A DNA stretch of 64,000 nucleotides from NCBI GenBank assembly GCA_964556395.1, contig CAZKVR010000001.1:106996-170995 (forward strand), in the 5' to 3' direction. This document shows, piece by piece, positions 8,010 to 56,101 of the stretch (position 1 is its first letter; each line of letters starts with the position of its first letter). This DNA is from an uncultured Methanosarcinales archaeon. Its GTDB lineage: Archaea > Nanobdellota > Nanobdellia > Woesearchaeales > WJKR01. A program made the position numbers and the translations under genes. A model generated the notes under the pieces. The model was not told the DNA's origin. It worked only from the letters and a program-made list of their open reading frames with translations, and made no database searches.

Positions 8010-8804
8010 TTATACTGAGATTTTCCCTTTGATATGAGGATGGGGGTCATACCCTTCCAGTTGGAAATCCTCATAATCGAATGAGAAAATATCTTTCTTC
8101 TCAGGGTTTATCCTCATCGTCGGCAGGGGCCTAGGCTCTCGTGAGAGCTGCAGTTCCACCTGCTTGAGATGGTTGAGGTAGATGTGGTAGTCTCCGAAGG
8201 TGTGTATGAACTCTCCAGCTTCCAGTCCGGTCACCTGTGCCATCATCATCGTCAGCAACGCGTAGCTCGCGATGTTGAAAGGGACCCCTAAAAAGAGGTC
8301 GGCGCTTCGCTGGTACAATTGACAGCTCAGCTTTCCTTCGTTGACGTAGAACTGGAACAAGACGTGGCAGGGAGGCAATCCCATCTTGTCGATGTCCGCG
8401 ACGTTCCACGCCGAGACGATGTGCCTCCTGCTCTTAGGATTATTCTTGATGGAATCTACCACTTCTGCTATCTGGTCTATGTGGCCGCCGTCCGGTTTCA
8501 GCCAGCTGCGCCACTGGTAGCCGTACACAGGTCCTAGGTTTCCGTCTTCGTCGGCCCACTCGTTCCAGATACTGACCCCTCTTTCCTGGAGCCATTTGAC
8601 GTTGCGACTCCCTTTGAGGAACCAGAGCAACTCGTAGATGATGCTCTTCAGGTGTATCTTTTTCGTCGTCACCAATGGGAAACCTTCGCTTAGGTCGAAG
8701 CGTTTCTGAGATCCGAATTTGGAGATGGTCCCGGTTCCGGTACGGTCTTCCTTGAATTTGTTTTCATCAAGGACTTCTTGTAATAGTTCTAGATATTGTC
8801 TCAT
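8010..8804 (-). CDS. thyA: Thymidylate synthase ThyA (bacterial-type)
   Basis: The sequence aligns along its whole length with E. coli ThyA. Conserved blocks include DRTGTGT, LPPCH with the catalytic Cys, and QLYQRSAD. Confidence 0.97.
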
Positions 8805-8842
8805 GGTAGTCTTATTTTTTTTCTACAACAGTTTTCAATCCC

Positions 8843-9641: not shown

Positions 9642-11336
9642 TTATAATGTGAAACTTAATGTAAAGAGCGCTTTGCTCAGGTAGAAGTCACTACCGCCAC
9701 CGCTGTCTAGAGTGCGAGTACTACCGTCCTGTAGCGTCCGGGTGGTGTGCCAACCCTTGTAATCGTCGCCTGGAACGTAGAATCCGAACTCTGCACCGAG
9801 GGCGATGTTCTCCCAAGGGAAGAATCCTATGCCGAAGCCTAGTGCAGGGAGCTTTCGCTTGGTGTCGAGGTCTTCGATGGCTATGGATTGCTTGGGAACG
9901 CCTTGGAGGTCTGTAATCTCCTCATAGGAGTTCTCCTTCCCTTTATAGGAGTCATAGCCTAACGAGCACCATGCCAGGAAGTCTTTCCGTTCCCGCTGCC
10001 TGAACATCACCAAAGCTTTCCAGCCGGTGAAGGTGGCGTCGCGTTCGATGTAGCCTTGGCCTCTCAGGTCTCCGACGGGCGGCCTCTTCTTCTCGATCTT
10101 TGAGTAGAAGCCGCCGTAGTTGAAGCCTGCTCCTAAGCCGAGATTCATCCACAAGCCTTTGTCAGGGTCGTCTGAAAGGAACGCGCCGGCCCAGAGGCCT
10201 CCTACGAAGGAGGGAGTGTTCTGATCCTGACCTGTCGCCGGCATGAAACCTGCGTGGGGGGTTATGACGAAGTGCTGTCCTCCCCATGGGTTCTTCTCGG
10301 GTACGGAGTCCTTACGGATAGTTTCTTTCTCCACCGTATCCTCAGCTTCCTCGACGAGGGTGATGTTGAAGGTCTGGTTGTAGTTGTTCACCACGCCAGG
10401 CTTCTCATCGCCTTCCACTATCACCGTGTCCTTCGCAGTCTCTTGTTCAGGCTTTTCCTTTTTCTTCGGACTTTGTTCCTTCGTGCGCTGAGCGGGCTTG
10501 GCTCCTCCTTCTTCCTTGACGAAGAAGTGGACTTTCCCCAACTTTCGACCATTGGGCAGAACGTAGTCTTCCTTGTTGCCGTATCGGAAGGCTGCGTAGA
10601 AGCCCTTTTGCAACTCTGTCGCATCGAGTTCGCCGTCCTCAAGGTTTTTCAAGACCTCTGAGCACTGCTTCCTCGCGGGTAGGCCGTAAGACTTGTATCG
10701 TTTCAGGCGGTTCAGGGCACGGAGTGGTTCCAACTGTTCAGTTTGGAGGGAGTACGAGAAGCTGGAGTCCAGCGCACGCCTCACCATCCGTATCCCTTTG
10801 ATACCATCGGTCACCATATGTATGGTGCCTAGTTCTAGCTTCTCTCCGGGGGAGAGCTTGCTGAATGCGTAGGTGGACACGGGCGAGATGAACAACGCGT
10901 CCTCCTCAGACTCCTTCAGGTCCTCTCCCAAGCGTTTTGCAGCATTTCCCTGGTCATAGTCTATCCTCAGGCCTTTCTTCTTCCGGTTAGGGATTCTGAG
11001 CTTCCTGAGGGCTTTGTTGTCTTCGAGCGCTTCTCGTTGTTTTGAGGTCAGCTCGATGACGGTCTTCCAGTCTCGTTCCTTGAATGGTACGAGCACGTCC
11101 GCGTAGCGGCGGGCGGGTTTGAGCGTATTATCCTCTAAGAGGATGATATCGACGTCCTTCCAGATGGATGCCGGAAGGTTCTCCTTGAAGTTGAACCCTG
11201 TGACATGTTCCGTCACCTCATCGAAGGACTTCTTGTTCGCCGTCGTGGAGTAGTCCCACGCGGGTACCCCGACCTGGCCGAGCAGCGTCGTATGCGCCAG
11301 CAGGACGAGGAAACATAGTGTGGTTATGGTTTTCAT
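9642..11336 (-). CDS. Secreted protein with N-terminal signal peptide and a beta-rich C-terminal domain
   Basis: The signal peptide reads MKTITTLCFLVLLAHTTLLGQ. The C-terminus has an alternating hydrophobic pattern ending FTLSFTL. Confidence 0.55.
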   Translation of the reverse strand: MKTITTLCFLVLLAHTTLLGQVGVPAWDYSTTANKKSFDEVTEHVTGFNFKENLPASIWKDVDIILLEDNTLKPARRYADVLVPFKERDWKTVIELTSKQREALEDNKALRKLRIPNRKKKGLRIDYDQGNAAKRLGEDLKESEEDALFISPVSTYAFSKLSPGEKLELGTIHMVTDGIKGIRMVRRALDSSFSYSLQTEQLEPLRALNRLKRYKSYGLPARKQCSEVLKNLEDGELDATELQKGFYAAFRYGNKEDYVLPNGRKLGKVHFFVKEEGGAKPAQRTKEQSPKKKEKPEQETAKDTVIVEGDEKPGVVNNYNQTFNITLVEEAEDTVEKETIRKDSVPEKNPWGGQHFVITPHAGFMPATGQDQNTPSFVGGLWAGAFLSDDPDKGLWMNLGLGAGFNYGGFYSKIEKKRPPVGDLRGQGYIERDATFTGWKALVMFRQRERKDFLAWCSLGYDSYKGKENSYEEITDLQGVPKQSIAIEDLDTKRKLPALGFGIGFFPWENIALGAEFGFYVPGDDYKGWHTTRTLQDGSTRTLDSGGGSDFYLSKALFTLSFTL

Positions 11337-29246: not shown

Positions 29247-30308
29247 TCACTTAGTAGTGACGAAATCTACGCAGAACCTGTAGATGTGCGGCGCTTGCTG
29301 GCCGCACCGCACCGTCTCGCGGATGTCGCAGCCGACGCCGGCGGCCTCGCACGCCTCGCGGATCCAAGAATATGCGCTATCGACCTTGTCCTCGTGGAGA
29401 AAGGCGTAGAAATGTATCGTCGCCGTGTCGTTCGCAGCCTTCAAAGCCACGTCGAGGAAGGTCTCTGCCCCTTTGGGCAGGGGCATGAGGATGCGGTCGA
29501 AGCCGCCTTTCTCCGAGACCAGCGTCGGCACGACCTCTCGGGCGTCCCCGACGTGCGTCGTGGCGTTGGAGAGCTTGTTCCGCTGGATGTTCTTGAGGGC
29601 GAGCTCGTGGCCACGCGGGTTGATCTCCACCCCGACGACCTCCGACGCATCGGTGTTCTTGCCCAGGACGCAAGTGTAGGGTCCGCAGCCCGAGAACATG
29701 ACGAGCACCCGCTCGTCCGGCTTCACGAGTCCCATGATGCGTTTCCGCTCGGTCGACAGCCTCACGGAGAAGTAGACATCCTCGACATCGACCTCGAGCG
29801 TGACGCCGTTCTCCTTGTGGAGCGTCACCCGCTTGTCCTCGCCCGCCAGCAACCGCATCTTCTGCGTCCGGTACGTACCCTCATGACTGGCGTCCTTGGC
29901 CAGCGCCGTGGACACGCGAGGGTTGGTCTCGAGCAGAGTCGCACCTATAACCTTGTCGTATTGTTTCAGGTCCTCATCGACTTCCAGGATGGCGATGTCG
30001 CCCACCTGGTCGTACGCCGTCTTGAGCCTTTCCAGGACGTCCGAGGGCAGCTTGCCTTGCAGGGCTTCGCGGAGGCTCTTGGGCCGTTCCTGCTGTCCCG
30101 GCAGGTCGCGCTCCTCGAACTCATAGGACGTGTCGAACCGTTCCTTGACCGGCAGGTAGAGGTGGCCGTCCTCCTTGACCGCCTTGTAGCCCGGCAGGAA
30201 GAGCCCTCGTTCTACGAGGTCTTTCCGGGCCTGTTCTGCGTCCTTCAAAGGCACCTTGAGCGCGAGCATGGGCGTCGTGAGCCAACGGGCGTTTTTAAGG
30301 TTATCCAT
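29247..30308 (-). CDS. trm5: tRNA (guanine37-N1)-methyltransferase Trm5
   Basis: VYFSVRLSTERKRI, MFSGCGPYT and LMPLPKGAETFLDVAL align with M. jannaschii Trm5. The start is placed at MDNLKN. Confidence 0.9.
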   Translation of the reverse strand: MDNLKNARWLTTPMLALKVPLKDAEQARKDLVERGLFLPGYKAVKEDGHLYLPVKERFDTSYEFEERDLPGQQERPKSLREALQGKLPSDVLERLKTAYDQVGDIAILEVDEDLKQYDKVIGATLLETNPRVSTALAKDASHEGTYRTQKMRLLAGEDKRVTLHKENGVTLEVDVEDVYFSVRLSTERKRIMGLVKPDERVLVMFSGCGPYTCVLGKNTDASEVVGVEINPRGHELALKNIQRNKLSNATTHVGDAREVVPTLVSEKGGFDRILMPLPKGAETFLDVALKAANDTATIHFYAFLHEDKVDSAYSWIREACEAAGVGCDIRETVRCGQQAPHIYRFCVDFVTTK

Positions 30309-30349
30309 AATTAGTTTCAATAAAGAAAAGAAAAGAGTCTGAAAAATCA

Positions 30350-30368
30350 GAGAACGCCTGCTGCTCGA
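30350..30368. repeat. 19-bp direct repeat copy 1 (GAGAACGCCTGCTGCTCGA)
   Basis: It is identical to copy 2 at 31960..31978. Both lie about 45 nt upstream of minus-strand ATGs. Confidence 0.8.
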
Positions 30369-30500
30369 ACACACGAAAGCATAACGGGCTCTCCGGAAAA
30401 ACTAGTGGACCCGTTGACACAAGGCATATATTCATCCGGACATATCTCCAAATAAGGAAAGGAACACAACAGTTATATACCTGCTATAACTACCTATAAG

Positions 30501-30737
30501 GTGATGAAGACTACAATCCAGCTCGACAAGCAGACCATCAGTCGCCTGCAGGAGCACAAGCTCTATCCGAGGGAGCCATACGACGCCATCGTCAACCGGC
30601 TCATTGACGAAGCAGAGGATGACGAAGAACTCACCCCTGATGAGATCAAGGATATCGAGGTTGCCCTGGAGCAGGTGAAGCAGGGTAAGACTATCAGAAT
30701 CGAGGACCTCGCGAAGGAGTTGGGTGTGAAGCTCTGA
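30501..30737 (+). CDS. RHH-type antitoxin (type II TA)
   Basis: An N-terminal beta-strand TTIQLDKQT is present. The stop overlaps the start of the RelE gene. Confidence 0.7.
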   Translation: MMKTTIQLDKQTISRLQEHKLYPREPYDAIVNRLIDEAEDDEELTPDEIKDIEVALEQVKQGKTIRIEDLAKELGVKL

Positions 30738-30988
30738 TGTACGCTCTCGAATTCTCGGATGAGGCCGCGAAGACTATCAGGAAACTACCCAGGAACGAGC
30801 GCGACCGCATCCTCAAGAAGATACAGAGCATCCGCGACTACCCCTTCGCGCATCTCAAGAAGCTGGAAGGCAATACGTTCTGGCGCCTCCATATCGGCAA
30901 GTACCGCGCCATCGTGGATGTCATCGTGTCCGGCAGGCGCATCATCGTCCTCAGGATCGGGAAGCGTGGCGATGTCTACGACCGCTGA
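30737..30988 (+). CDS. relE: RelE/ParE-family toxin
   Basis: The protein is about 83 aa and contains ...FWRLHIGKYRAIVDVI...RIGKRGDVY. Confidence 0.8.
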   Translation: MYALEFSDEAAKTIRKLPRNERDRILKKIQSIRDYPFAHLKKLEGNTFWRLHIGKYRAIVDVIVSGRRIIVLRIGKRGDVYDR

Positions 30989-31017
30989 GAACCCAACCTA
31001 CAAGAGCAGCAGCTCTT

Positions 31018-31917
31018 CTACACGACGACGAGCACGACACCCACGAGCATGACGCAGCACGCCATGAGCTTCAATCCCAGCCGGTGCTCGTGGAACAACC
31101 GACCCCCTATCAAGGAGGTGAAGAACGTCGACAAGCGCCTGACAGGGATTATGAGGCTGACCAGCGCTCCGGGAACACCCATGGCGAAGAGCAGAGCCAC
31201 GTCGGACATGAAGCTGGAGAATGTGCTGCTGAATATCTGCATCCCATCCTGCCTGATATCCCTGAGAATCTCGTTGAAGCCATGCTTGGCAGTCTCGAAC
31301 GCCACATAGTTGAAGCCCATGAAGAGCCTCACGAGGACGACGATAGTGAACACGTCGATACCCCAGTTCACCACAGCCTTCTGCATAGTGACTGTAAAGC
31401 TGAAGATGAGCATGGCGAATATCATGTACAGGGCGTACCGCGACCTCGCCAGGATTCTGAACGGCGACCAGATGCCATTGTACCGGCCAGCCGTAGCCAT
31501 CTGGAGAAGGTATGTCCCCATGACGAGGAGGAACACGCCGATGATAGCGAGGGCGTCGGGCGACTCTCCCAGCAGGACGAACGCTATGACGAGGAGGAAT
31601 AACGGACTGATATTCATCAACGGCATGCAACTGGACAGTTCGGAGTGACGCAGGCTCCTCAAATAGTAGAGGTTGCCGGCCGCGAGGATGATACTGATCA
31701 CGTACAACGCTACGAAGACGCGCCAGTCGTATGCTAGGTTGATGAACGGCAGGACGAATATGAGCAACAAGAGGTATATCCCTTGGGACGCGCCGTATTC
31801 GAGGGCGTGCTCGTGCTGGAGCACTTTCTTCCCGACGATGCTTGCCATGGCGTGGAAGACGGCCGATGCGAATGCGTAGGCTACCCAGAGCATGAGCCCT
31901 TCACCGCAACCATTCAT
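31018..31917 (-). CDS. EamA/DMT-family transporter
   Basis: Ten TM helices are predicted. An EamA-like motif SPLFLLVIAFVLLGESP is present. Confidence 0.7.
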   Translation of the reverse strand: MNGCGEGLMLWVAYAFASAVFHAMASIVGKKVLQHEHALEYGASQGIYLLLLIFVLPFINLAYDWRVFVALYVISIILAAGNLYYLRSLRHSELSSCMPLMNISPLFLLVIAFVLLGESPDALAIIGVFLLVMGTYLLQMATAGRYNGIWSPFRILARSRYALYMIFAMLIFSFTVTMQKAVVNWGIDVFTIVVLVRLFMGFNYVAFETAKHGFNEILRDIRQDGMQIFSSTFSSFMSDVALLFAMGVPGALVSLIIPVRRLSTFFTSLIGGRLFHEHRLGLKLMACCVMLVGVVLVVV

Positions 31918-31959
31918 TTATAAACGTTACTGTCACTCCAGATAATGACAGGATGCCGC

Positions 31960-31978
31960 GAGAACGCCTGCTGCTCGA
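31960..31978. repeat. 19-bp direct repeat copy 2. Includes the palindrome CTGCTCGAGCAG
   Basis: See copy 1. Confidence 0.8.
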
Positions 31979-31991
31979 GCAGAAGCCCTTT

Positions 31992-33023
31992 TCAGAAATA
32001 ATCGCCGAGTCCTTTCTGGGCTCGTTCCTGGCCGTGCTTGGCGAGCTGCTCCACCGTTTTCTGGACGCGTTCGGGCGAGAAGTCGTGGCGTTCCACCAGG
32101 ATCTCGTGCAGCGCGTCGCCATCCACCCCTTTCCATTGCAGGTCGTACTCGTCCGTGACTGGCATCTGCTTGAACAGGGCGAAGGCTTCCTGCCATGAGG
32201 ATTGGAACTCTTCTCGCCAGTTGACGTCTGCGAACACCTTGCCGACGTCTTCCTGGGCTTTGACGAGCTTGAGGCCTTTCTTCGGCCCTATCCCTTTGAT
32301 GCCGCCGACGTTGAAGTCCGTGCCTATCAGCAATCCTAGGGCTATGAGCTGGTCCCTTGTGATCTCTAGCTTCTGCAGCACGTCCTGGAGTGTTATGAGT
32401 TCGGGCTTGATGCCTTCGGTGGCGTAGGCGCCTTTCTTCTTGCGCCGGGCGGTGATGCTGAGGTTCTTCACCATCCGCGGGGTTCCGAACAGGAGGCAGT
32501 CGTAGTCTTGGCTGATGAGCGCCCACGCGTCGCCCTTGTAGACCATGTGGGCTGCTTGTGCCTCTCCTTCAGAGGGTGCTTGGATGGTCGGGATGCCTAA
32601 TGCTGTGAGGAGCTCTTTCGCCTCGTCCACCATGTCTCTCGTCAGCCTCGAGGTGCGGCCGGCGTATTTCTTCATGCCTTCTACATCCTCGGCTTCCTTG
32701 GCGGCGTCGTATGATGCTTGGGCGTCCTGCTTGAGCTTCTGCCGCCGCTCCTGCTCTTTCCGTTTGAGCTCTGGGGCTTTGCCGTCGAAGACGAAGACGA
32801 GCCTGAGGCCTTCTCGCATGAGTTTGGTGGTCCTTGAGAAGAGGCCTACGAGGTGGCTGGTGACGTTGCCGTGCTTGTCCGAGAGCGGCGCGCCGTCCGG
32901 GCCTCGGATGGTGGTGAGGAACTGGTAGAGGACGTTGTACGCGTCGACGACGAAGGTCTTGCCTGACAGGTCTGCCAGGCTGACCGGTTCTCCTTTGACG
33001 AGTTCTGAGAGCGAGACGCCCAT
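31992..33023 (-). CDS. fen1: Flap endonuclease 1
   Basis: The N-terminus is MGVSLSELV...VDAYNVLYQFLTTIR. A PCNA-interacting C-terminus is present. Confidence 0.95.
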   Translation of the reverse strand: MGVSLSELVKGEPVSLADLSGKTFVVDAYNVLYQFLTTIRGPDGAPLSDKHGNVTSHLVGLFSRTTKLMREGLRLVFVFDGKAPELKRKEQERRQKLKQDAQASYDAAKEAEDVEGMKKYAGRTSRLTRDMVDEAKELLTALGIPTIQAPSEGEAQAAHMVYKGDAWALISQDYDCLLFGTPRMVKNLSITARRKKKGAYATEGIKPELITLQDVLQKLEITRDQLIALGLLIGTDFNVGGIKGIGPKKGLKLVKAQEDVGKVFADVNWREEFQSSWQEAFALFKQMPVTDEYDLQWKGVDGDALHEILVERHDFSPERVQKTVEQLAKHGQERAQKGLGDYF

Positions 33024-33149
33024 GGCGGTGGTGAGAATATGGTTCTTCTTAAGGGTTTGGATGGTGGTTCTCTAGAAAACCAGTTGAATATTAAAAAAAC
33101 CAATTGGTTTCCAAAAAGTTTATATAGTTTCGAACGAAACCAAAAGAAT

Positions 33150-33722
33150 ATGGAAGGAGTCAATAAGGAAAGCTATGAAGAAGAGGACGCTTATACGAAG
33201 GTGTTGTACTGGTTCTTCGCCCACCCCACCATTGAAGTCAGCCTCAACGACCTCGTCGAGGCGGTGAACATCTCCAAGACCTCGGCGAACAAGGCCGTGC
33301 ACAGGCTCGTGGATGAAGGATTCCTTCGCCTCAAGCAGCTGGGACGGCTGTGGCGCATCACTTGTAACCAAGAGCACGAGTACAACATCACCAGGAAAGT
33401 CCCGTTCAACCTCCAGACAGTCTACCAGGCAGGCATCCTCGAAGAGATTCGCAAGCGCATCCCGAACCCCCGCGCAGTCGTGCTCTTCGGCAGTTATCGC
33501 AAGGGCGACGACACGGAGGAGAGCGACATCGACATCGCAGTGGAAGTGATGGATGACAAGGATTACAGGATAGTGGAATTAGGGGTCCTCACGACCTTAG
33601 GTTTCCGCGAGCACGTGCCCGTCAACCTGCACGTATTCTCACGCAACCATGTGGACCTCAACCTGTTCGCCAACATCGCCAACGGCATCGTCCTTGAAGG
33701 GTTCCTGGAGGTGCGACCATGA
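33150..33722 (+). CDS. MNT-type nucleotidyltransferase with N-terminal wHTH (antitoxin of a HEPN/MNT pair)
   Basis: The GS...DxD motif reads VVLFGSYRKGDDTEESDIDIAV. A TATA box TTTATATAG lies 24 nt upstream of the ATG. Confidence 0.75.
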   Translation: MEGVNKESYEEEDAYTKVLYWFFAHPTIEVSLNDLVEAVNISKTSANKAVHRLVDEGFLRLKQLGRLWRITCNQEHEYNITRKVPFNLQTVYQAGILEEIRKRIPNPRAVVLFGSYRKGDDTEESDIDIAVEVMDDKDYRIVELGVLTTLGFREHVPVNLHVFSRNHVDLNLFANIANGIVLEGFLEVRP

Positions 33723-34105
33723 GGAGGAAACGTCCCGATATCAAGAACGCCGACAGCCTGCTGGAGGCCAGCAAGAACACCCTGAGGTTCACCATGAAGC
33801 TGGAGGTGTCGGAGGAGTCGGCCGACACTATCATCAGGAACGTGCACGAGGCGTTCCGGATGCTCGGCGAGGCATTGCTTCTCAAGCAAGGAGGGGTCGC
33901 CGTCGATCACACCCAGCCGATCGAGGCCCTCATCCGCACGAACGTCCAAACAGAGAGGCCCTTGTCGGTGTTGACGACCATCAGGAAGACGAGGCATTCC
34001 ATCAATTACTACGGCTACCGGCCGACGGTGGCGGAAGCGCGGGATGCGGTGTCTGTGGCCGAGGCTTGTTTCGACAAGCTGGCAGAACATGTCAAGAGCC
34101 TATAG
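33719..34105 (+). CDS. HEPN-domain protein (putative toxin partner)
   Basis: The protein is all-alpha and about 128 aa. It contains an RKTRHSINY Rx(n)H-like motif and overlaps MNT by 4 nt. Confidence 0.55.
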   Translation: MRRKRPDIKNADSLLEASKNTLRFTMKLEVSEESADTIIRNVHEAFRMLGEALLLKQGGVAVDHTQPIEALIRTNVQTERPLSVLTTIRKTRHSINYYGYRPTVAEARDAVSVAEACFDKLAEHVKSL

Positions 34106-35148
34106 CTGTACCAACAATAATCCTTTGAATTCGTGGTTGAGCTTCTCCTTCGCTTTCTTCGTCACGTCGCCTGTCGTGAGGTAGATGACCGGTAGCTTCT
34201 TCATCTGTCCTTGGACGTACGCGTTGGAGAGGTCGCCGTCGTTGCTCTTCTTCTTGTTCTTCGCCTTGCAGAAATAGGTGACGCGACCGACGGCTGTCGG
34301 TACTGAGATCTCGAATTCGATGTCCGAGTTCTTGCGCTGGACCTCTTTGGCGATGACCTGGATTCGCTTCTCGGCGAAGTATTCCAGGACTTGTTTGAGG
34401 AAGTCGTCGCCGGTGTCGTCCTGTTGCTTGAGGAGTGTCTTTGCGGGCACCGCTTCGGGCGTTCCGGAGGGTTCTTCCGACCCACTCTCTTCTTGCATCT
34501 CAGGCTCTGCTGCTTTTGTATGCTCGTGTTTCACGGCTTCTGACTGTTCTTGCGTTGCTGGTTTCGGGGCTTGTCTCGTGGATTTTTGTGGCGCTTGCTC
34601 AGGAGATTGCCGGGCGTCTTGCGAGGGTTCTGTCGGTGACGCTTCCTTGGACTGTTCTTCCTGGATTGGTGCTGGTTGTTCTGCTGGCTTGGTCTGCTTG
34701 GGCGTGATGCCTAATGCCTGTTTGATGAGCGGCTCCGCCTCTTTCGTCTGGAGCTGGTACCATTTCCAGAACAGGACGGTGCCGTCTTTCGTCTTGACTT
34801 CCAGTGGTACGGCGAAGTCTTTGACCTGTCGGAGGCTGACCCTGGCGAGGGGTTCTTGCTCGTCGTCTTTGAGTATCTGTTTCTGCTTGAGGAGTTCTGC
34901 CGTCCGCCTGTCCTTCTCGCCGAGGTATTGTATGAGTTTGGTCAGCTTGTCGGCGTGTTCCGGGATGTAGTAGAAAGGCCCTCCGCGTTTGGTGTTGCTC
35001 ACCTTGACCTTCCCTGCGCCTTTGAGCTCTGACAGGACGGCGCCGATGGTGAACGAGTCGCCTTCGCCGAGGGCTTTCCTGATGTGGAGGGGTTGGCACG
35101 GGCCTTTCTGTCGGAGGACTTGCAGGACGGCGTCTCTGTTGAGCATGT
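34100..35148 (-). CDS. wHTH + PD-(D/E)xK nuclease-like protein with a low-complexity linker
   Basis: The start is placed at MLNRDAVLQVLRQKG. The C-terminus has a SDIEFEISV...CKAK restriction-endonuclease-like motif. Confidence 0.5.
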
Positions 35149-35201
35149 TTTCTTCGAGGTGTCGGTGATTTATAATCCTGTTGCTTGCCACATAGATAAT
35201 T

Positions 35202-35222
35202 TCTATAGTGAAAATAATCTGT
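35202..35222 (-). promoter_or_regulatory. Conserved promoter-like motif, copy C (TCTATAGTGAAAATAATCTGT on the plus strand)
   Basis: It lies about 55 nt upstream of minus-strand gene 34100..35148, in the divergent region shared with the sigma-factor gene. Confidence 0.45.
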
Positions 35223-35263
35223 AAAACAAAAATAGTCTTATAGTACACTACTATCGCGTCAAT

Positions 35264-35851
35264 ATGGCAGGAGACAGGCTCATCCACGAGGAATTCATAC
35301 AGGCCAAGACAGACCCCCTCATGAGAGAGGCAGTGATGGGCAAGGTGTGGACGAAAGCATACCACATCGCGTCGAGATACACCCGCTCATCAGCAGAGGC
35401 GGAGGACATCGCCCAGGAAGCCTCGTTGAATGTCCACAAGAACTTCCACGTCTACGGCAGCAAGAGGCAGAACAACCCATACGCATGGGTGCACACCATC
35501 ACCACGAACATCTGCGTAAATCACTACCGGAGGCGGCCGAAAACCCCCATCATAAGCCTCGACGAGGAGGAAAGGGCAGAGGGCCATACCAGGATGAAGA
35601 GGGATGTCCCGGACGAGCGCAACAACATCGAGGACTACCTCAACCTCAAGGAGTGCGAGGAGGTGTTGGCCAGCCTGCCTGAAAAGAAAGGGAAGGCCTA
35701 CCTGTTGTCCTATCTCGAAGGATACAAGTACGACGAGATCGCAGCGATCACCAAGGAGCGGATGGGCACCGTGAAAAGCAGCATCCATAGGATGAGAGAA
35801 CGGGCGAAAGAGCTGTTCCAGGAACGCGCTCCCGTCTACATCAGGAAGTGA
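35264..35851 (+). CDS. ECF-type RNA polymerase sigma-70 factor (regions 2 and 4)
   Basis: Region 2 reads AEDIAQEASLNVHKNF...YAWVHTITTNICVNHYRRRP. Region 4 reads LPEKKGKAYLLSYLEGYKYDEIAAITKERMGTVKSSIHRMRERAKEL. Confidence 0.8.
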   Translation: MAGDRLIHEEFIQAKTDPLMREAVMGKVWTKAYHIASRYTRSSAEAEDIAQEASLNVHKNFHVYGSKRQNNPYAWVHTITTNICVNHYRRRPKTPIISLDEEERAEGHTRMKRDVPDERNNIEDYLNLKECEEVLASLPEKKGKAYLLSYLEGYKYDEIAAITKERMGTVKSSIHRMRERAKELFQERAPVYIRK

Positions 35852-35856
35852 ACCAC

Positions 35857-36564
35857 ATGCAGGCAGTCATCATCAGCGGAGGGTTGGGGACGCGGTTGAA
35901 GCCCCTGACAGATACCATTCCGAAAGGCCTCGTCGAAGTGCAGGGGCGGCCGTTGTTGGAGCACGTCCTCGACCTGCTCAAGGAAGCCGGTGTGGACGAC
36001 GTCATCATTTCCATCGGCTATCTCGGCGATAGGATAAAAGAGCATTTCCAGGACGGGAACAGCCATGGCGTCCGCATCAGGTACGTGGAGGAGGATAAGC
36101 CCCTAGGGACGGGTGGCTGGCTCCACAAAGCAAGAGGGATGCTGTCAGGCGATTTCCTCGTCGTCAACGGCGACAACCTCTTCGCCTTGGACCTCCACGA
36201 GATGCTGCGGTTCCACCGGGAGCGGGGAGCGACGGCGACGATAGGCCTCACCAGGGTGAGCGACCCGTCGTCGTTCGGCATCGCTGCGATGGACGGCGAC
36301 CGTATCGCGAGGTTCGTGGAGAAGCCTTCGCGAGAAGACGCTCCTTCTGACTTGGCGAACGGCGGCTACTACGTCTTCAACGAATCGGTTTTCGGCATGA
36401 TACCGTCGCGAGAGCGTTTCATGCTCGAGCAGGACGTCTTCCCAGCACTTGCGGGAAAAGGTAGGTTGTTCGGCTTCCCCTCAGGTGCGCAGTGGTTCGA
36501 CACCGGCACGTTCGAACGCCTCCAAGAAGTGGAATCCTTCTGGCGGAAAGGCAGCAACGTTTAA
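35857..36564 (+). CDS. Sugar-phosphate nucleotidyltransferase
   Basis: The N-terminus is MQAVIISGGLGTRLKPLT. A GTGGW motif is present. Confidence 0.8.
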   Translation: MQAVIISGGLGTRLKPLTDTIPKGLVEVQGRPLLEHVLDLLKEAGVDDVIISIGYLGDRIKEHFQDGNSHGVRIRYVEEDKPLGTGGWLHKARGMLSGDFLVVNGDNLFALDLHEMLRFHRERGATATIGLTRVSDPSSFGIAAMDGDRIARFVEKPSREDAPSDLANGGYYVFNESVFGMIPSRERFMLEQDVFPALAGKGRLFGFPSGAQWFDTGTFERLQEVESFWRKGSNV

Positions 36565-36594
36565 AAAGGGAAGGGTGTTGGGTTTCCTCAAGCC

Positions 36595-37275
36595 ATGATA
36601 CAGCAACGACACGTTGACGAGTGCAAGCGACAGCTCATAAGGGCGGGCTGGGCGTGTGACATCGACAACACCGTCTCCGCCACGGCTGAAGCGTTCTTCG
36701 ACCGCATGGATGGGCTGTTCCCCCGCCCTGAAGGGGATGAGGGCCTCTCCGTGAGTGAGCTCGTGCGGAAATATGTGAGCGATGACCAAGTACCGACTTG
36801 GCAGACACCTGAGGCCCGTGCCGCCAGCAAGGCTATCATCTCAGACCCCGAGTTCTATCGGGAACTGCCTCCCATAGCGGGTTCTGATACGGTCTTGAGG
36901 AGGTTCACGGAAGCCTTGCCTTTCACGTGTTTCATCACCGCCCGTCCTAATGTGGTGGCTGATGAGACGAGGGCTTGGCTGGAGAGCCGCTTCCCCACCC
37001 TGCCGCTCATCACCAAGCCTGACAGCGTGGATCCTTCTCGGAACAATGAGTGGAAGGCTCGGCTGCTGGAAGCGTTGTATCCGCAGGTGCGAGGTATCGT
37101 CGACGACGATCCGCGCCTGGTAGAGCATCTCTCGCCTGGTTATGGGGGGACGGTCATCATCTTCGGCGCGTCAAGTGTGGAGCACGATCACGTCGAGGCT
37201 TATGCTTGCTTGACGTGGAAGGATGTGGAGAGGAAGCTGGAGGAGCTGGCGAGTCTCAAGGCCGCATCCATTTGA
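36595..37275 (+). CDS. HAD-superfamily hydrolase
   Basis: A DxDxT motif (CDIDNTV) and a downstream DDD motif are present. Confidence 0.55.
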   Translation: MIQQRHVDECKRQLIRAGWACDIDNTVSATAEAFFDRMDGLFPRPEGDEGLSVSELVRKYVSDDQVPTWQTPEARAASKAIISDPEFYRELPPIAGSDTVLRRFTEALPFTCFITARPNVVADETRAWLESRFPTLPLITKPDSVDPSRNNEWKARLLEALYPQVRGIVDDDPRLVEHLSPGYGGTVIIFGASSVEHDHVEAYACLTWKDVERKLEELASLKAASI

Positions 37276-37909
37276 TCTCCCAGTACGACACGTCGCCTTC
37301 GTCGTCGACGACGCCGATGAGCAGCCTTTTCTTCGTCGAGTGGGCCACGCGGTTCTTGGCTGCGAACTCGTACCATGTCAGCGTCGAGCCTTCGTGGACG
37401 GGGTAGACAACCCATCTTGCGTGGTCTTCGCCTGGCTTGACGCCGCGGTCGTACACGCGGAAGTCGGCTCCGAACTTCAGGGCTGTCTTGACGATGTAGC
37501 CTCTGTTCCTGAGGTCTTTGAAGACGGAGTAGCGTATCCAGAACTGCGGTTCGATGCGTTTGGCCTTGCGGAGGAATTGCTGGAAGTCGAGGGTCTTGCC
37601 GTGGTAGTCTTTCACGTGGAGGCGTCCTTTCTCGAGGAGGTAGAGGGCTTCGTGGAGGCTGAGCTGGACCTTGCCGTCTTCCAGCATGACGCCGTAGCGG
37701 CTCTGCGCGTAGAGGTCTCGCGCCGCGTCGGTGTTCTCGGTGATGACTCGTTCCTTGGCGAAGATGGCGTTGACCTTGACCTTCTTGCGGCCGTTGCTCA
37801 CGGCTTTGGGGATGATGCCTTTGAAGTCTTCCTCGTGGTTGAGCGGGTCTTCGAAGGTGAACTCGTCCTCGTGGAGGTGGATGCCGCTCTCGTCCTTCTT
37901 CTTGGCCAT
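37256..37909 (-). CDS. endA: tRNA-splicing endonuclease
   Basis: The protein carries GADFRVY, HARWVV and AHSTKKRLLIGVVDD. Confidence 0.85.
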   Translation of the reverse strand: MAKKKDESGIHLHEDEFTFEDPLNHEEDFKGIIPKAVSNGRKKVKVNAIFAKERVITENTDAARDLYAQSRYGVMLEDGKVQLSLHEALYLLEKGRLHVKDYHGKTLDFQQFLRKAKRIEPQFWIRYSVFKDLRNRGYIVKTALKFGADFRVYDRGVKPGEDHARWVVYPVHEGSTLTWYEFAAKNRVAHSTKKRLLIGVVDDEGDVSYWEIKWMRP

Positions 37910-37958
37910 GGCTGTGGAGAGGAGAGGGTGCTTTATAAATATTTGGCAGAATATATTA

Positions 37959-37980
37959 CTATATAGAAAATAATTTGTGT
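37959..37980 (-). promoter_or_regulatory. Conserved promoter-like motif, copy B (CTATATAGAAAATAATTTGTGT on the plus strand)
   Basis: It lies about 45 nt upstream of the endA ATG. It matches copy A at 21 of 22 positions. Confidence 0.5.
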
Positions 37981-38009
37981 AAAAAAAAGGCTGCGGAGAT
38001 GCAGCCTTT
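37981..38009 (-). terminator. Hairpin AAGGCTGC-GGAGAT-GCAGCCTT plus T-run (minus), 3' of gene 38022..38912
   Basis: An 8-bp stem is followed by 8 T on the minus strand. Confidence 0.6.
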
Positions 38010-38021
38010 GATTTGCAGAGT

Positions 38022-38912
38022 TCAACGATCCACAGGCACGAACTCGAATTCTATCTCATCAGTATCATTGAAGCCGAGCTCGGAAAAAAAGAACAATGCA
38101 TGATGATTATCATCAAGCGGTCTTTGGAAGATGACACGGAAACCCCTGCCATCCTCATCGACATCTCCAGTACATCTGAGCTTGCACTCTTCGTATGAGT
38201 ATTCAGGAGAACGTGAGTATCTGCTCCTATACCTATCATATTTGATATCATAGATGCGATTGAAATGCCAACCTATCAGACCGCCTCGGTGTTTCATCGT
38301 TGCAGGGTGGATTTCGGCTTGTTTGACAAAATAAATCTTCTCGCCATACGTGTACCTCGAAAGGTACTTGCGATATATCTTATCGAATGAATCCTTCCAC
38401 CCATCCGAAATTGTGTTCCGTTTCCTGATGGTCCAAGCGAAGACTCCGGACCCGTCAACAGGATCGACATCAGCGTACGCTATGATACAGGTTTGTTCCA
38501 TATAGTTATCGCGGCGGAACAGAGAGGACTTCTCTTCCTCCTTATAGACACCAACATAATATCCGCGTGGACGCGGAAATACGGGTTCGAACGAAGAGGT
38601 AGAGAACTCGAAATAGTTTACTCCTTCCTCGACATGGATCGTGTGCTCTTCTATAGAGCCGTCACCTGACTTGATAGCGAGCGTGTGCTTGCCAGTATCG
38701 ACATCTCTGATAGGGAGCCTGCCATACACCTTCTTGACATTGAATGATGAGTCGATCACATCGTATTCGTTAGATGTGAATCCCTTAAATTCCCCATCGA
38801 GGTAGACCCCACAGCCAGGATCGCCTGAAACACCTAGCGTTTGCGCGACCCCTTCGATGCTGAGCATCGCGAGAAGGAGTCCGAATGAACTGATAAGAAA
38901 TGATGTTTTCAT
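38022..38912 (-). CDS. Secreted PEGA-like domain protein (paralog 1)
   Basis: The start is at MKTSFLISSFGLLLAMLSIEGVAQ. A CxPGxxVYLD...G.H.L pattern is shared with gene 38993..39766. Confidence 0.55.
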   Translation of the reverse strand: MKTSFLISSFGLLLAMLSIEGVAQTLGVSGDPGCGVYLDGEFKGFTSNEYDVIDSSFNVKKVYGRLPIRDVDTGKHTLAIKSGDGSIEEHTIHVEEGVNYFEFSTSSFEPVFPRPRGYYVGVYKEEEKSSLFRRDNYMEQTCIIAYADVDPVDGSGVFAWTIRKRNTISDGWKDSFDKIYRKYLSRYTYGEKIYFVKQAEIHPATMKHRGGLIGWHFNRIYDIKYDRYRSRYSRSPEYSYEECKLRCTGDVDEDGRGFRVIFQRPLDDNHHALFFFSELGFNDTDEIEFEFVPVDR

Positions 38913-38992
38913 AATTATTATTTTTGTGAGTTTATTACAATTAGTTTTATTTGATGTTCTGGACGTCAAGACGCCTTTTCTCAGCGAGAGAT

Positions 38993-39766
38993 TCAATAGG
39001 GTGAAGAAGGCATCGGCACGAACTCGAAAGTCAGCTCCTTATTGTCGAATATCTTATCATACCCTTTCGTGGAGCGCAGGCGAAGGGTGAAACCCTCGCC
39101 ATCCTCTTTTATCCGGCCATTCCCGATCAGGATAGGCTTGCTACCGCTATGCTGGCTGGCAGATAATATCATACGGACACTCACATCGCCAGAAGAAGCC
39201 ACTTTCATCTCCCCTGAGAAGAGGGTCGTATAACGCTTCTGACGCAAGTCCTCGATGTCATAGACATCGAGAAAGAAACCGTAGAACATGTCCTTGAAGG
39301 TGTAGGAGTTCCTGCTTTCATCCCCATACCTCGAAAAAGGCGCCCACGTGAATTCGATGTTTTTAGTGGTCGTGTCGTCCTCACCCATATAGAGCATGAG
39401 GTGATGGTGTATCGTGGTTGATTTGAACAACGATTTCTTCTCCTCTACATTGTAGGAAGCGACATAGTAACCGTCCTTGCGAGGGAAACCAGCACTCTTA
39501 TCGATGTTGACCACAAGTTCGTTCACGCCTTCATGGATGTCGAGAGAGTAGCGTTTCACGAATCCCGTGCTTTTCTTCACCGTGAGTTCATGAGCCCCTA
39601 GGGCTACATCGTCGATGAACAGACCGTCCTGCGCGTCGCTCGTGACGCCTTTGAGCGTGTCATCGAGGTAGACCCTGTAGCCCGGCTCGCAGATGACAAA
39701 AAGTTGTTGTGATACTCCTTCGCTCCAGAGAGCGAAGAGCATGATAATAAAGATTAGATGTTTCAT
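38993..39766 (-). CDS. Secreted PEGA-like domain protein (paralog 2)
   Basis: The N-terminus is MKHLIFIIMLFALWSEGVSQ. It is arranged in tandem with paralog 1. Confidence 0.55.
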   Translation of the reverse strand: MKHLIFIIMLFALWSEGVSQQLFVICEPGYRVYLDDTLKGVTSDAQDGLFIDDVALGAHELTVKKSTGFVKRYSLDIHEGVNELVVNIDKSAGFPRKDGYYVASYNVEEKKSLFKSTTIHHHLMLYMGEDDTTTKNIEFTWAPFSRYGDESRNSYTFKDMFYGFFLDVYDIEDLRQKRYTTLFSGEMKVASSGDVSVRMILSASQHSGSKPILIGNGRIKEDGEGFTLRLRSTKGYDKIFDNKELTFEFVPMPSSPY

Positions 39767-39979
39767 GAATCATAAGATTTGAAGTTTGACAAATGTTTTG
39801 AAAGATACGCCGTAGGTTCCGACTGCTCCGAGAACCACCCCCCATCATTGAGCCAACCCGAAGGTGGTGTCGAAGGATGGTATCACGACACCTCCACCAT
39901 AGTGATGGCGCCGTGATTGCTTTCATAAGCATTGTTTGTTTCATAAGCTAACGAGCGATACAATAATTGTTTATAACTA

Positions 39980-40453
39980 TCAGTAGGAGATGACCCCCCA
40001 TCCGAGACTGACCTCGAACGCAGGGACTATTTCAGGCGCCCCGAAAGCGACACCACCTCCAAACCTGAAGTCGAAGTTTTCTCCTAAGATAAAACGGTAG
40101 CCGGTGACGACGGCGATAACATCATAATACGTGTCAGACGCGTCCTCAGTCACCATGACGTAGTTCGTTAAATTAGAGGCAAATAAGAAGTAGCCTGACT
40201 GAAACGGATCGGGTTCGAAGAAAAAATTGACACCTACTCCGGTTACAACATCACCATTCGGTTTCCGTCCTCCATATCCTAATGAATAGCTCAAAGAGTA
40301 ATTGTTTGAGACGTCAAGGAAGTGTTCGAGGCCAAAGACACCTGTGATAGTAGAGGCTCCTCCCCGGAAATACCAGATATCTTGAGATTGCGCTGGTCGC
40401 GCCATCAGCAACGTGATGGCCGTGATTGCGATGATAAGGATTGTTTTTTTCAT
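39980..40453 (-). CDS. OMP-like beta-barrel protein
   Basis: A signal peptide is present. TGYRFILGENFDFRFGGGVAFG-type amphipathic strands run to an aromatic C-terminus (ISY). Confidence 0.55.
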   Translation of the reverse strand: MKKTILIIAITAITLLMARPAQSQDIWYFRGGASTITGVFGLEHFLDVSNNYSLSYSLGYGGRKPNGDVVTGVGVNFFFEPDPFQSGYFLFASNLTNYVMVTEDASDTYYDVIAVVTGYRFILGENFDFRFGGGVAFGAPEIVPAFEVSLGWGVISY

Positions 40454-40504
40454 GATGTAAAGGTTTTTGAGTTATACAATGTGTTCTCGTGAATTGATGT
40501 AGGG

Positions 40505-41080
40505 TTATTTCAGCCACGGCTTCCACAGCGCGAACCCTGCTCTGATTTCGAGGTAGAGTCCGCTTGCGATGTAGCTGTGCCTGTAGCCGGCTCCCGCTTT
40601 TATGAAGTAGTGGTCTCCTGCGAACCTGTAGCCGAGCGTTGCCGTGATGGCTGGAGTCCAGCCTTCGGTCTCGCCGTCGTGCGTCCGTTTGTAGGTGCCT
40701 TGTTCTGCGTTCGTCAGGAATCCCGCGCTGAGGTATGAGCCGTCGTTCAGGATTGCGCCGTTGATCGCGAGGTCGAATCCGAAGGACCATCGGTCTTCGA
40801 GAGGTCCTGGTTTCCCGAGCCTGACGTCGAGGGCTACCCGGTCGTAGTTGAATGATACTCCTCCGTAGGGGATGGTGTACCAGTCGAGGCCTCCCATGAG
40901 GTATATCTGGGTTTCGGCTCTCGTTTCCGGCAGTCCATGGTTGTAGTATCGCGGACGGTGCACTTTCTTAGGGGTGTAGTTCCGTCCGAACTTGCTCTTC
41001 TCGTCCTCTTGTGAGGATGCTTGCTGTGCTCCTGCGATGAGCAGGAGTGATGCGATCGCTGTGATGAGTGTGCTTTTCAT
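40505..41080 (-). CDS. OMP-like beta-barrel protein
   Basis: A signal peptide is present. Segments TATLGYRFAGDHYFIKAGAGYRHSY and LYLEIRAGFALW show the same pattern. Confidence 0.55.
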   Translation of the reverse strand: MKSTLITAIASLLLIAGAQQASSQEDEKSKFGRNYTPKKVHRPRYYNHGLPETRAETQIYLMGGLDWYTIPYGGVSFNYDRVALDVRLGKPGPLEDRWSFGFDLAINGAILNDGSYLSAGFLTNAEQGTYKRTHDGETEGWTPAITATLGYRFAGDHYFIKAGAGYRHSYIASGLYLEIRAGFALWKPWLK

Positions 41081-54344: not shown

Positions 54345-54954
54345 GGACGCGAAAGGACTTTTCAAGGACTGGGACCTCAAAAGACGATGGGCAACACCTA
54401 CACAAGCGTTCATCGAACACACGAGGAGGAAGGCGAAGGACTCGTTGGAACTAGCGAACTACCTCATGGAGAAGGTGGAAGGCACGAGCGAACTCTCCCA
54501 AAACAGTACAGCTACCATCTGGGTGGTGACCGTCGCGTACTACTCGATGTTCTTCCAAGCGGAATACCTGCTCGGCCTGGACGGAAGGAAGTTCCCGAGA
54601 GGGACAAAGGACACGCATAAGACGGTGTACCTCGCATTCATCTACTATTACCTTATCAAAGGGTCTGACCAGGAGCGGACGACGAGCACAAAAACGACCA
54701 CCAGTAGGATGTCACGCGCACTGGCGCTCTTCAAGGAACTGCAGGATGAGACCATGGAATTGCAGCGGGTGGAGAGAAAGGCGGAAGACCTGGACCGACA
54801 ACGACGGAAGAGGCAGGATTTCACCTACGAGATGAACCGGACGGCAAAGATATCAGAGGCGAAGAACAGCTTGATGAAGGCCAAGGAATTCCGGACCCTC
54901 ATAGAAGAGTGCCTGTTGGCACGCAAGACAGGCATCACTTCCGCACGAACCTGA
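54322..54954 (+). CDS. HEPN-like protein
   Basis: The protein is all-alpha with an RGTKDTH (Rx5H) motif. It overlaps the MNT gene. Confidence 0.5.
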   Translation: MLRPKDCEDAKGLFKDWDLKRRWATPTQAFIEHTRRKAKDSLELANYLMEKVEGTSELSQNSTATIWVVTVAYYSMFFQAEYLLGLDGRKFPRGTKDTHKTVYLAFIYYYLIKGSDQERTTSTKTTTSRMSRALALFKELQDETMELQRVERKAEDLDRQRRKRQDFTYEMNRTAKISEAKNSLMKAKEFRTLIEECLLARKTGITSART

Positions 54955-56101
54955 CGACCCATTGCGGCAGCTTGCCCGTGAACACCTGTTCCTGCGTGTC
55001 CACGACGAAGCCGTACTCGTCAGCGGCGGACGTGAGGTCTTCCGGCTTCTGGCACAGGAACGTCAAGGAGCCAGCCTTGGCGAGGACGAAGTCGGCCTGG
55101 TAGAAGAGCTGCTTGTTCAGGTCCGACACCTTCTTCTGCGGGACGTGCTTGCTCGCCTCGATGGGCTGCGTGACGATGCAATCGACCGACTTCTCCGTCA
55201 GCTTCGTGTCCAGCCACTCGACGTCCATCTTGGAGAACTCGACCGCCTTGTCGACACCGGCGATCTTCGCGTTCTTCTTCGCAGCGGTGATGTTCCGCAG
55301 CTGCGCGTCGAAGCAGTGCACAGTCTTGTCCGCCACGTCGACGATGGCCTTGTCCATCTCTGCCAACACCTTGTCGGCGTGCTCGACGAAGAAGTGATGC
55401 TTCTTCACCAAGAGGTCCTTCTCGTAATACCGCAATGACTTGCCGGAGGCCATGAGCGCCGCCTCGATAGGGACTTCGCCGCCGCCGGCGTACGGGTCGA
55501 CGAGCACCTTGCCGGGCGTCCAGCCGGACGCCATGAGGAGCGACGCCGCGGTCGGCCCTTTCATGCTGTGCGGGTTGTTGAACACCTTGTACGGGCGTTT
55601 GGAAGCGTCATATCCGAGGAGGTCGAGGCTGAGCCACGCCTGGTCCTCGTCGACGTGGAGGTAGAGTAATATGTCAGGCTTCTTGATATCAACCCGCGGA
55701 GCCTCTCCGAGCGACTCCTTGGCCAATCGTCGGATGACGCGTCCGGTCTCCTGGGCGAGGTCGATGCTGTTGTAGTCGTGCGTGCCCTCGCGGCTGCACA
55801 CGACGGAGAACGACTTGTCCTTGCTGAGGAATCGTTCGAAGTCGAGCGATCCGATGGCGGTCTCGAGGTTGTGCAATGACTCCTCCAGGGAGGGCGTCAC
55901 CTCGGCGCTGCAGAGCAACGCGCCTACACGGGTGGGCGTCTGCATGAGGTAGGCGGCGGCGAGGAGGTCTCGGACTGATGACTCGTGGAACACGACGCAC
56001 GTGTCACCCTTGGTCACCTCGTGGCCGAAGCTCCGCAGTCGGGCTTCCGCCTCGACGTAGGGGCTGCAGCCGCGCTCGCACGCGAGGAACAGGTCTTTCA
56101 T
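54935..56101 (-). CDS. THUMP-domain RNA methyltransferase (Trm11/Trm-G10/RlmL family)
   Basis: LVDPYAGGGEVPIEAALMA matches a class I SAM-binding site. A THUMP-like region lies N-terminal to it. Confidence 0.65.
   Translation of the reverse strand: MKDLFLACERGCSPYVEAEARLRSFGHEVTKGDTCVVFHESSVRDLLAAAYLMQTPTRVGALLCSAEVTPSLEESLHNLETAIGSLDFERFLSKDKSFSVVCSREGTHDYNSIDLAQETGRVIRRLAKESLGEAPRVDIKKPDILLYLHVDEDQAWLSLDLLGYDASKRPYKVFNNPHSMKGPTAASLLMASGWTPGKVLVDPYAGGGEVPIEAALMASGKSLRYYEKDLLVKKHHFFVEHADKVLAEMDKAIVDVADKTVHCFDAQLRNITAAKKNAKIAGVDKAVEFSKMDVEWLDTKLTEKSVDCIVTQPIEASKHVPQKKVSDLNKQLFYQADFVLAKAGSLTFLCQKPEDLTSAADEYGFVVDTQEQVFTGKLPQWVVRFVRK

Follow-up and report, generated by a model that had tools for sequence, protein, structure and literature searches.

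The 64,000-nucleotide (64-kb) stretch of DNA analyzed here (contig CAZKVR010000001.1; the window throughout) carries, at positions 35264–35851 of the plus strand, a gene for a sigma-70 factor of the extracytoplasmic function (ECF) type, and our analysis confirms that its product, hereafter sigma, is an intact two-domain protein of that kind. It is the only sigma gene in the window, it lies among the genes of a Woesearchaeal archaeon and, as judged from an alignment with relatives that lack it, its open reading frame (ORF) sits exactly between an older archaeal promoter and 5’ untranslated region (UTR) and the start codon of a sugar-1-phosphate nucleotidylyltransferase (NT) gene. On balance we favor, with modest confidence, the view that the protein has been domesticated as a sequence-specific DNA-binding regulator that would work with the archaeal basal machinery, be controlled through its own transcription and probably act on surface-glycan or envelope functions. 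The gene and its parts are as follows.

35264–35851, plus strand: ECF-type sigma-70 gene (195 amino acids; Pfam and NCBIfam matches above cutoff).
About 35357–35536, plus strand (residues 32–91): sigma2 domain, matched by Sigma70_r2.
Residues 92–126 (about 35 residues): disordered linker between sigma2 and sigma4.
About 35657–35800, plus strand (residues 132–179): sigma4 domain, matched by Sigma70_r4_2.

An earlier note on this DNA, written from the letters of the sequence, had recognized sigma-70 signatures of region 2 (AEDIAQEA...WVHTITTNICVNHYRRRP, residues 46–92) and region 4 (EGYKYDEIAAITKERMGTVKSSIHRMRERA, residues 152–181), and both are borne out by significant profile matches. Pfam Sigma70_r2 (PF04542) aligns to residues 32–91 with 51.9 bits (E = 6.7e-14; gathering threshold, GA, 24), Sigma70_r4_2 (PF08281) to residues 132–179 with 43.2 bits (E = 3.1e-11; GA 25.7), and Sigma70_ECF (PF07638) reaches 23.5 bits (GA 21.1). 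The NCBIfam model of the ECF superfamily, TIGR02937 (sigma70-ECF), is passed at 69.4 bits against a cutoff of 42.9, and all subgroup and equivalog models (SigW, RpoE, SigH, SigM and others) stay far under theirs, the best subgroup model being SigW (PRK09641, 79.8 bits against 209). The chain follows a sigma2–linker–sigma4 plan over its 195 residues, is matched only by the r2, r4_2 and ECF models, lacks regions 1.1 and 3, and retains the canonical motifs of regions 2.2, 2.3/2.4 and 4.2. Of the family trait of binding bacterial core RNA polymerase (RNAP) and conferring promoter-specific initiation, it is the region 2.2 motif alone, D48-x-x-Q51-E52, that is seen to be conserved. No hydrophobic or transmembrane (TM) segment appears in a simple hydropathy scan. 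The nearest solved structures by sequence are those of M. tuberculosis SigH and SigE, E. coli sigmaE, SigW and AlgU, and the same ECF structures are nearest by fold, the Foldseek matches with E<1e-3 being essentially all ECF sigma chains. In the AlphaFold2 model, which was built from a 16-sequence alignment (an earlier three-sequence alignment gave a poor sigma4), sigma2 is predicted with a pLDDT of about 90 (residues 11–90), sigma4 with a moderate 60–77, and the linker is disordered; the sigma4 of the model matches region 4 of E. coli sigmaE (2h27) with a TM score of 0.75–0.80 on the target.

Downstream of sigma lie two further genes on the same strand, with which it forms an apparent operon, and upstream it is separated from a divergent gene by a conserved intergenic region.

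34100–35146, minus strand: divergent conserved gene (348 amino acids; no Pfam or NCBIfam match).
35147–35263, no strand assigned: divergent intergenic promoter region (117 nucleotides; columns on average 87% identical in three sigma-bearing loci).
35169–35176: TATA-like box TTTATAAT, about 27 nucleotides upstream of the ATG of the minus-strand gene.
35196–35218: A/T-rich TATA-like element ATAATTTCTATAGTGAAAATAAT, common to sigma-less relatives.
35234–35246: element AGTCTTATAGTAC, confined to sigma-bearing loci.
35857–36564, plus strand: NT (235 amino acids; GGxGTRL motif; PF00483 at 157.6 bits), second cistron.
36595–37275, plus strand: HAD-superfamily NT5C-like protein (226 amino acids; DIDNT motif, DxDxT; PF06941 at 30.8 bits, GA 24.8), third cistron.

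Sigma is the first gene of this apparent operon. NT starts 5 nucleotides past the sigma stop codon, with a Shine-Dalgarno-like AGGAAGTGA inside the 3’ end of sigma, and no terminator-like site was seen on the plus strand between sigma, NT and HAD; the Pfam matches (PF00483 and PF06941) agree with the earlier description of the downstream genes as a sugar nucleotidyltransferase and a HAD hydrolase. NT falls under the cutoff of all NCBIfam equivalogs, and its homologues are labelled Woesearchaeota or Nanoarchaeota. A TATA-like promoter had also been proposed, and A/T-rich TATA-like elements are indeed found in 35147–35263; the conserved elements upstream of sigma are of this kind and are common to sigma-less loci. 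A conserved upstream 13-mer recurs in the window at chance level and a 20-mer has no other copy there, while in metagenome contigs the invariant 20-mer GATTTATAATCCTGTTGCTT has one chance match, on a contig (L091) without similarity to the window. The absence of an adjacent anti-sigma gene likewise holds, since Pfam and NCBIfam find no zf-HC2 or other anti-sigma domain in the proteins next to sigma and none of the flanking proteins has a TM segment.

The point of insertion emerges from a comparison with two sigma-less relatives, a 103-kb ENA contig (L092) and GCA_014729015.1 (L094; its NT carries the label Ca. Woesearchaeota). The two share the backbone HerA-orf162-Trm5-EamA-FEN1-ORFan, the divergent NT (together with HAD in L092) and EndA, and L094 reaches further, with MBL and Hjc past EndA; their proteins are about 56–82% identical to those of the window (tblastn), and tblastn with either sigma allele gives no match in them. 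The NT-upstream region of about 119 nucleotides in these loci aligns with the 117-nucleotide region upstream of sigma, and the two have in common the elements CCTGTTG.TT and AATAATT.CTATA.AGGAAAATAATT..G.AAAA. Because the relatives have this backbone and, immediately before NT, a homologous promoter, sigma is best read as a single-gene insertion. The earlier note had offered extensive bacterial gene flow as one of two readings; what the locus shows is one such insertion, into an archaeal backbone that is otherwise conserved. Distances between the sigma clade, L092 and L094 are all about equal (EndA 80–83%, FEN1 71–73%), and a single gain on the stem of the sigma clade is therefore the most parsimonious history. 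Flanking direct or inverted repeats around sigma are limited to short chance matches, no integrase, tRNA or Rfam element marks an integration in the window, and a scan of viral contigs revealed no viral relatives of the sigma family.

The archaeal setting of the gene is genuine, as had been claimed from the FEN1 and EndA genes that bracket it, and is supported by family matches and by labelled proteins.

31992–33023, minus strand: FEN1 flap endonuclease (XPG_N and XPG_I matches), an archaeal backbone gene upstream.
37256–37909, minus strand: tRNA-splicing endonuclease EndA (PF01974 and PF02778; TIGR00324 at 115.9 bits).

EndA is convergent to the operon and bounds it, overlapping the 3’ end of HAD by 20 nucleotides, and its amino acid identity among the sigma-bearing loci is 96–99%. 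The window protein at 54935–56101, a THUMP methyltransferase, is identical to MFP4523811.1, which is labelled Candidatus Woesearchaeota archaeon (277,225-bp contig), and an at least 90% identical FEN1 carries the same label; archaeal hallmark genes in the window comprise FEN1, EndA, Trm5/TYW2, HerA, Hjc, NAC and an MBF1-like helix-turn-helix (HTH) protein. The labelled protein, the archaeal markers and the orthologous loci thus place the sigma-70 protein on a contig with Woesearchaeal genes. A Logan contig from an independent assembly (L001, SRR11308339) is 100% identical to window positions 29661–38383 over 8,723 bp, a span that includes Trm5, FEN1, sigma and EndA. In contigs from three other samples, sigma alleles were recovered that are 81%, 70% and 50% identical to that of the window; the order sigma, NTP transferase, HAD and, on the opposite strand, EndA is kept in L003, L085 and L086, and the 1.1-kb contig L084 has sigma followed by the NTP transferase. 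The GC content of sigma (0.56), its GC at third codon positions (GC3, 0.80) and its codon usage match those of the archaeal core genes (GC3 0.78–0.89), with no break in GC, GC3 or codon usage at the gene, and its composition is fully ameliorated to that of the host.

The sigma ORF is intact in all four alleles, at 194–196 amino acids. The gene call for the 70% allele in L003 (463–1110, 215 amino acids) starts at an upstream ATG; when it is aligned with the other alleles and with the intergenic region, which is conserved, the true start falls at the ATG at 520, which gives 196 amino acids. Sigma is under purifying selection, with a dN/dS (Nei-Gojobori) of 0.25–0.29 among the window, L084 and L003 and of 0.44–0.51 against the L085 allele, compared with 0.03–0.06 for EndA and 0.10–0.14 for NT. 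Between the alleles that are 50% identical, the best-conserved internal segments are regions 2.3–2.4 (64%) and the sigma4 HTH (59%), and no change at all is seen in D-x-x-Q-E/D of region 2.2 or in two motifs of the linker, ISLD and RNNIE.

This divergence is confined to the gene itself. In a sliding-window comparison of the DNA of the window and L085, identity is 88% upstream and in NT and 90–99% in EndA, and drops to 54–67% in the body of sigma (35315–35851). The body of HAD (36572–37200) shows the same low-identity pattern with a different partition of the strains: the HAD of the window is 55% identical at the amino acid level to those of L003 (1855–2535) and L085 (1460–2140), which share 90% with one another, and for the NT and EndA genes on either side identity is 86–99%. 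The allele type of HAD does not co-vary with that of sigma. HAD was considered as a co-varying, anti-sigma-like partner, a candidate that was rejected because sigma class A occurs with both HAD allele types. Since L084 and L085, which come from the same sample (ENA ERZ27241908) and carry sigma alleles 81% and 50% identical to that of the window, share an identical 129-nucleotide upstream region and the first 18 sigma codons before they diverge, sigma appears to be subject to strain-level polymorphism and recombination. We read the mosaic, with its gene-exact edges, as a product of homologous exchange of whole-gene alleles in the population rather than of decay, because the ORF stays at 194–196 amino acids with its motifs kept.

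Outside this clade the protein has no close relatives. An exhaustive HMMER scan of 1.84 billion (1.84e9) representative proteins recovered 18,755 sigma relatives, of which only one, P0028, passed E<1e-30; it is 50% identical to sigma, comes from the same syntenic locus (one 50%-identity cluster) and is followed by a next match of 88 bits and 38% identity. In a profile search the four alleles again come first, and the score then falls from 356 to 95 bits. The nearest outsiders that were checked are 31–41% identical and no bacterial sequence exceeds 41%; beyond the four alleles, no archaeal-labelled sequence was closer than the bacterial ones in the searches run. All five of the nearest outsiders with inspected contigs lie in bacterial contexts (zf-HC2 anti-sigma, FliS, RuvC/MutL, SLH proteins, YidC-RnpA-L34), so that sigma is of bacterial ECF ancestry, and zf-HC2 genes adjoin the bacterial relatives P0004 and P0029. 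A scan of genome contigs with a generic sigma pattern (from a three-sequence alignment) returned, among the matches listed, only bacterial ECFs at 29–35% identity. The SigW model, as the best-scoring subgroup, and the Bacillota-like context of the nearest outsiders weakly hint at a Bacillota-like donor. As the next relatives are at most 41% identical and bacterial, the gene may have been acquired independently of fam00359, the Woesearchaeota sigma-70 family described below. A distant ECF-like sigma match on a 3.5-kb contig (P0313) is labelled Candidatus Hermodarchaeota archaeon (Asgard), by label only.

Several other features of the window deserve mention. The product of the divergent gene at 34100–35146 begins with a segment that by eye resembles a winged helix, followed by an acidic, Pro- and Gln-rich low-complexity middle and a conserved C-terminal domain, and it has no TM segment; its orthologues occur in both sigma-bearing and sigma-less Woesearchaeota, with 90% amino acid identity to L003 over 133 residues and, for L092 and L094, about 56% local tblastn identity (66–68% in global alignments). 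The winged-HTH nuclease that had been placed upstream of sigma has to be redescribed: the protein at 33039–33722 is a winged HTH with a nucleotidyltransferase (MNT), paired with HEPN, and that at 34100–35146 matches no family. Neither this pair (33039–34105) nor a second toxin-antitoxin-like pair, DUF7557 with ParE (30501–30988), occurs in the orthologous loci without sigma (L092 and L094), which makes the conserved backbone a hot spot for the insertion of accessory genes. On the other side of sigma, the minus strand of 38022–41080 encodes four small proteins with hydrophobic, signal-peptide-like N-termini and a GC3 of 0.51–0.69. The cluster is syntenic in L085 (2903–6326), where its proteins are only 26–57% identical and the adjacent EndA is 99% identical; L001 ends (38383) inside its first gene. 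The reading of OMP-like barrels could not be upheld, as these proteins match neither OMP nor any other Pfam family even at E<=0.5. Finally, positions 1–26000 have a GC content of 0.42–0.50, against 0.54–0.63 elsewhere, with nearly all ORFs on the minus strand and almost all of them ORFans without Pfam or PHROG matches (PHROGs gave nothing for ten ORFs). No relative of the 564-residue ORF at 9642–11336 was found among IMG/VR viral contigs, and the block is possibly a genomic island, or else a provirus not recognised as such. It contains the ThyA gene that had been noted earlier.

8013–8822, minus strand: ThyA of bacterial/eukaryal type (PF00303 at 423 bits), inside the low-GC block.

The locus resembles and departs from known systems in several respects. 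Castelle et al. 2021 (Front Microbiol 12:660052, PMC8204110) reported sigma-70 genes (fam00359) that are ‘particularly prevalent in Woesearchaeota’, ruled out mis-binning, found no anti-sigma factors and called the mechanism unclear; our full-text literature searches found no experimental follow-up. Like fam00359, sigma is a sigma-70 protein in a Woesearchaeota genome with archaeal neighbors and no anti-sigma, a likeness by description and not by HMM, whereas the present clade is a tight orphan group of four alleles. Bacterial ECF factors (group 4), represented by SigH/SigE, SigW and sigmaE (PDB 6jcy, 5zx2, 5wuq, 6jbq, 1or7), offer the same two-domain protein of about 190 residues encoded by the first gene of an operon, and sigma matches their motifs in regions 2.2 (AEDIAQE), 2.3/2.4 (W..I..N...RRR) and 4.2 (GTVKS.I.R.R). 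Unlike them, it belongs to an archaeal host with TBP/TFB-type promoters and has no co-transcribed anti-sigma; no AAC/CGT autoregulated promoter was seen by eye, the superfamily model TIGR02937 is the only NCBIfam model passed and identity does not exceed 41%. With archaeal one-component HTH regulators that act with TBP/TFB, the proposed likeness is that of a sequence-specific HTH protein at an archaeal promoter, beside its likely targets, but there is no kinship of sequence or fold, sigma being a bacterial sigma4/sigma2 pair and not a native archaeal winged HTH.

Taken together, the results suggest a history in which a bacterial ECF (group 4) sigma-70 gene would have been acquired horizontally by a narrow Woesearchaeota (DPANN) clade and placed, as one ORF, behind the native archaeal promoter and 5’ UTR of an existing NT-HAD operon and ahead of that operon’s start codon, where it would now be the first cistron, driven by the archaeal promoter. 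It would since have diversified fast through whole-gene allele exchange between co-occurring strains. The protein would have ceased to give promoter specificity to a bacterial RNAP, given that such an enzyme is expected to be missing from the host (the 64-kb window contains no RNAP genes); instead, it is predicted to bind specific DNA sequences as a regulator, in cooperation or competition with TBP, TFB and RNAP at archaeal promoters, its activity being set by the level of its own transcription and not by an anti-sigma. Co-transcription with sugar-activating enzymes and the hypervariable secreted-protein cluster nearby make cell-surface or glycan functions its likely targets.

A number of points weigh against this regulator model. 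DNA binding, targets and expression of sigma are predictions, and some contact with RNAP may be retained, as the region 2.2 motif and the linker motifs ISLD and RNNIE do not vary and are not obviously needed by a free-standing DNA binder. By-eye inspection of the aligned regions upstream of sigma showed no ECF-type AAC-N16-17-CGT promoter, and no motif repeated in the window ties the sigma promoter to other genes. Constraint on the gene is only moderate, since its dN/dS lies above that of the neighboring housekeeping genes (0.03–0.14), and the statements on anti-sigma factors and bacterial RNAP cover the 64-kb window rather than the whole genome.

Among the alternatives, the one that fares best, although we consider it unlikely, is that sigma is a true initiation or specificity factor on the archaeal RNAP, with region 2.2 docked on the Rpo1N clamp coiled-coil, the linker in the cleft, and private promoters redirected or stimulated. 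The clamp coiled-coil is homologous across the three domains of life, the version in Rpo1N being the homologue of the beta’ clamp helices and the site where TFE and Spt5 bind. In addition, alleles with no more than 50% identity agree in D-x-x-Q-E/D, ISLD and RNNIE, the protein still has the complete ECF architecture with both domains, and neither an anti-sigma nor bacterial core genes lie nearby. However, we know of no precedent for a sigma factor that binds an RNAP of archaeal or eukaryotic type, the beta-flap tip to which sigma4 would bind differs in the archaeal enzyme, region 2.2 could be conserved simply because the sigma2 helical bundle needs it to fold, and no ECF-like -35/-10 promoter was seen by eye at the operon itself. 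A fuller version, to which we give slightly less credence, holds that the ECF sigma has been domesticated onto the clamp coiled-coil of the archaeal (RNAPII-like) polymerase beside TBP and TFB, and that its allele diversity would be kept by control of variable surface functions.

The readings that follow are less likely than the regulator model. That sigma is a neutral or decaying remnant of horizontal transfer, devoid of current function, is improbable: it evolves faster than any other gene of the locus (50% amino acid identity between strains whose EndA is 99% identical), dN/dS reaches 0.5 between allele classes and the sigma-less relatives manage without it, but its ORF is intact in the four alleles, dN/dS is well below 1, the diagnostic motifs are kept, and allele exchange, not decay, is what the raised dS and the sharp boundaries at gene ends indicate. 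More improbable still is a role of sigma outside the archaeon, on the RNAP of a bacterial host or partner cell, or in the regulation of a mobile or defence island that carries it, in the manner of DdvS/DdvA. The first idea is in keeping with Castelle et al. 2021 (PMC8204110), who speculate that bacterial cell walls may serve Woesearchaeota as a point of attachment. The second draws on the backbone hot spot, with its ParE and MNT/HEPN toxin-antitoxin-like pairs and the hypervariable secreted-protein cluster. ECF sigmas that control defence islands are known in bacteria (the DdvS/DdvA loci), which provides a precedent. Against both, the hydropathy scan of sigma gave no TM segment, the window contains no secretion system, no integrase, flanking repeats or viral relatives were found, and sigma is embedded in a housekeeping-type sugar-nucleotide operon and not in a defence cassette. 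Finally, although sigma factors are bacterial elsewhere and MiST2 (2009) counted no ECF sigma in 67 complete archaeal genomes, a bacterial fragment joined to an archaeal contig at assembly or binning has virtually no chance of being the explanation, since L001 independently reproduces the junctions at 100% identity, the 81%, 70% and 50% alleles of other samples are flanked by the same archaeal genes in the same order, no break in GC, GC3 or codon usage occurs at the gene boundaries and the promoter upstream of sigma is homologous to that of sigma-less Woesearchaeal loci; chimerism and mis-binning were rejected on these grounds and, the profile matches being significant as well, neither of the two refuting outcomes named in the earlier note has come about.

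The existence of sigma-70 genes in Woesearchaeota is not new, having already been reported by Castelle et al. 2021 (PMC8204110). What the present locus adds is the place at which the gene was inserted, behind a native archaeal promoter, together with orthologous loci that lack sigma, an orphan clade of four alleles and the swapping of alleles. In textbooks, promoters are recognized either by sigma factors or by TBP/TFB, and the one excludes the other. That an archaeon keeps a sigma gene under selection raises the question whether a bacterial specificity subunit can be re-used as an ordinary DNA-binding regulator or can talk to an archaeal RNAP; should docking on the clamp prove true, two initiation systems that elsewhere exclude each other would have formed a natural hybrid. 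The locus amounts to a clean natural experiment, in which close genomes with and without sigma share the same backbone, and its known insertion point, its operon with sugar-activating enzymes and its several divergent alleles would provide concrete constructs for work on RNAP binding, DNA binding and the regulon.

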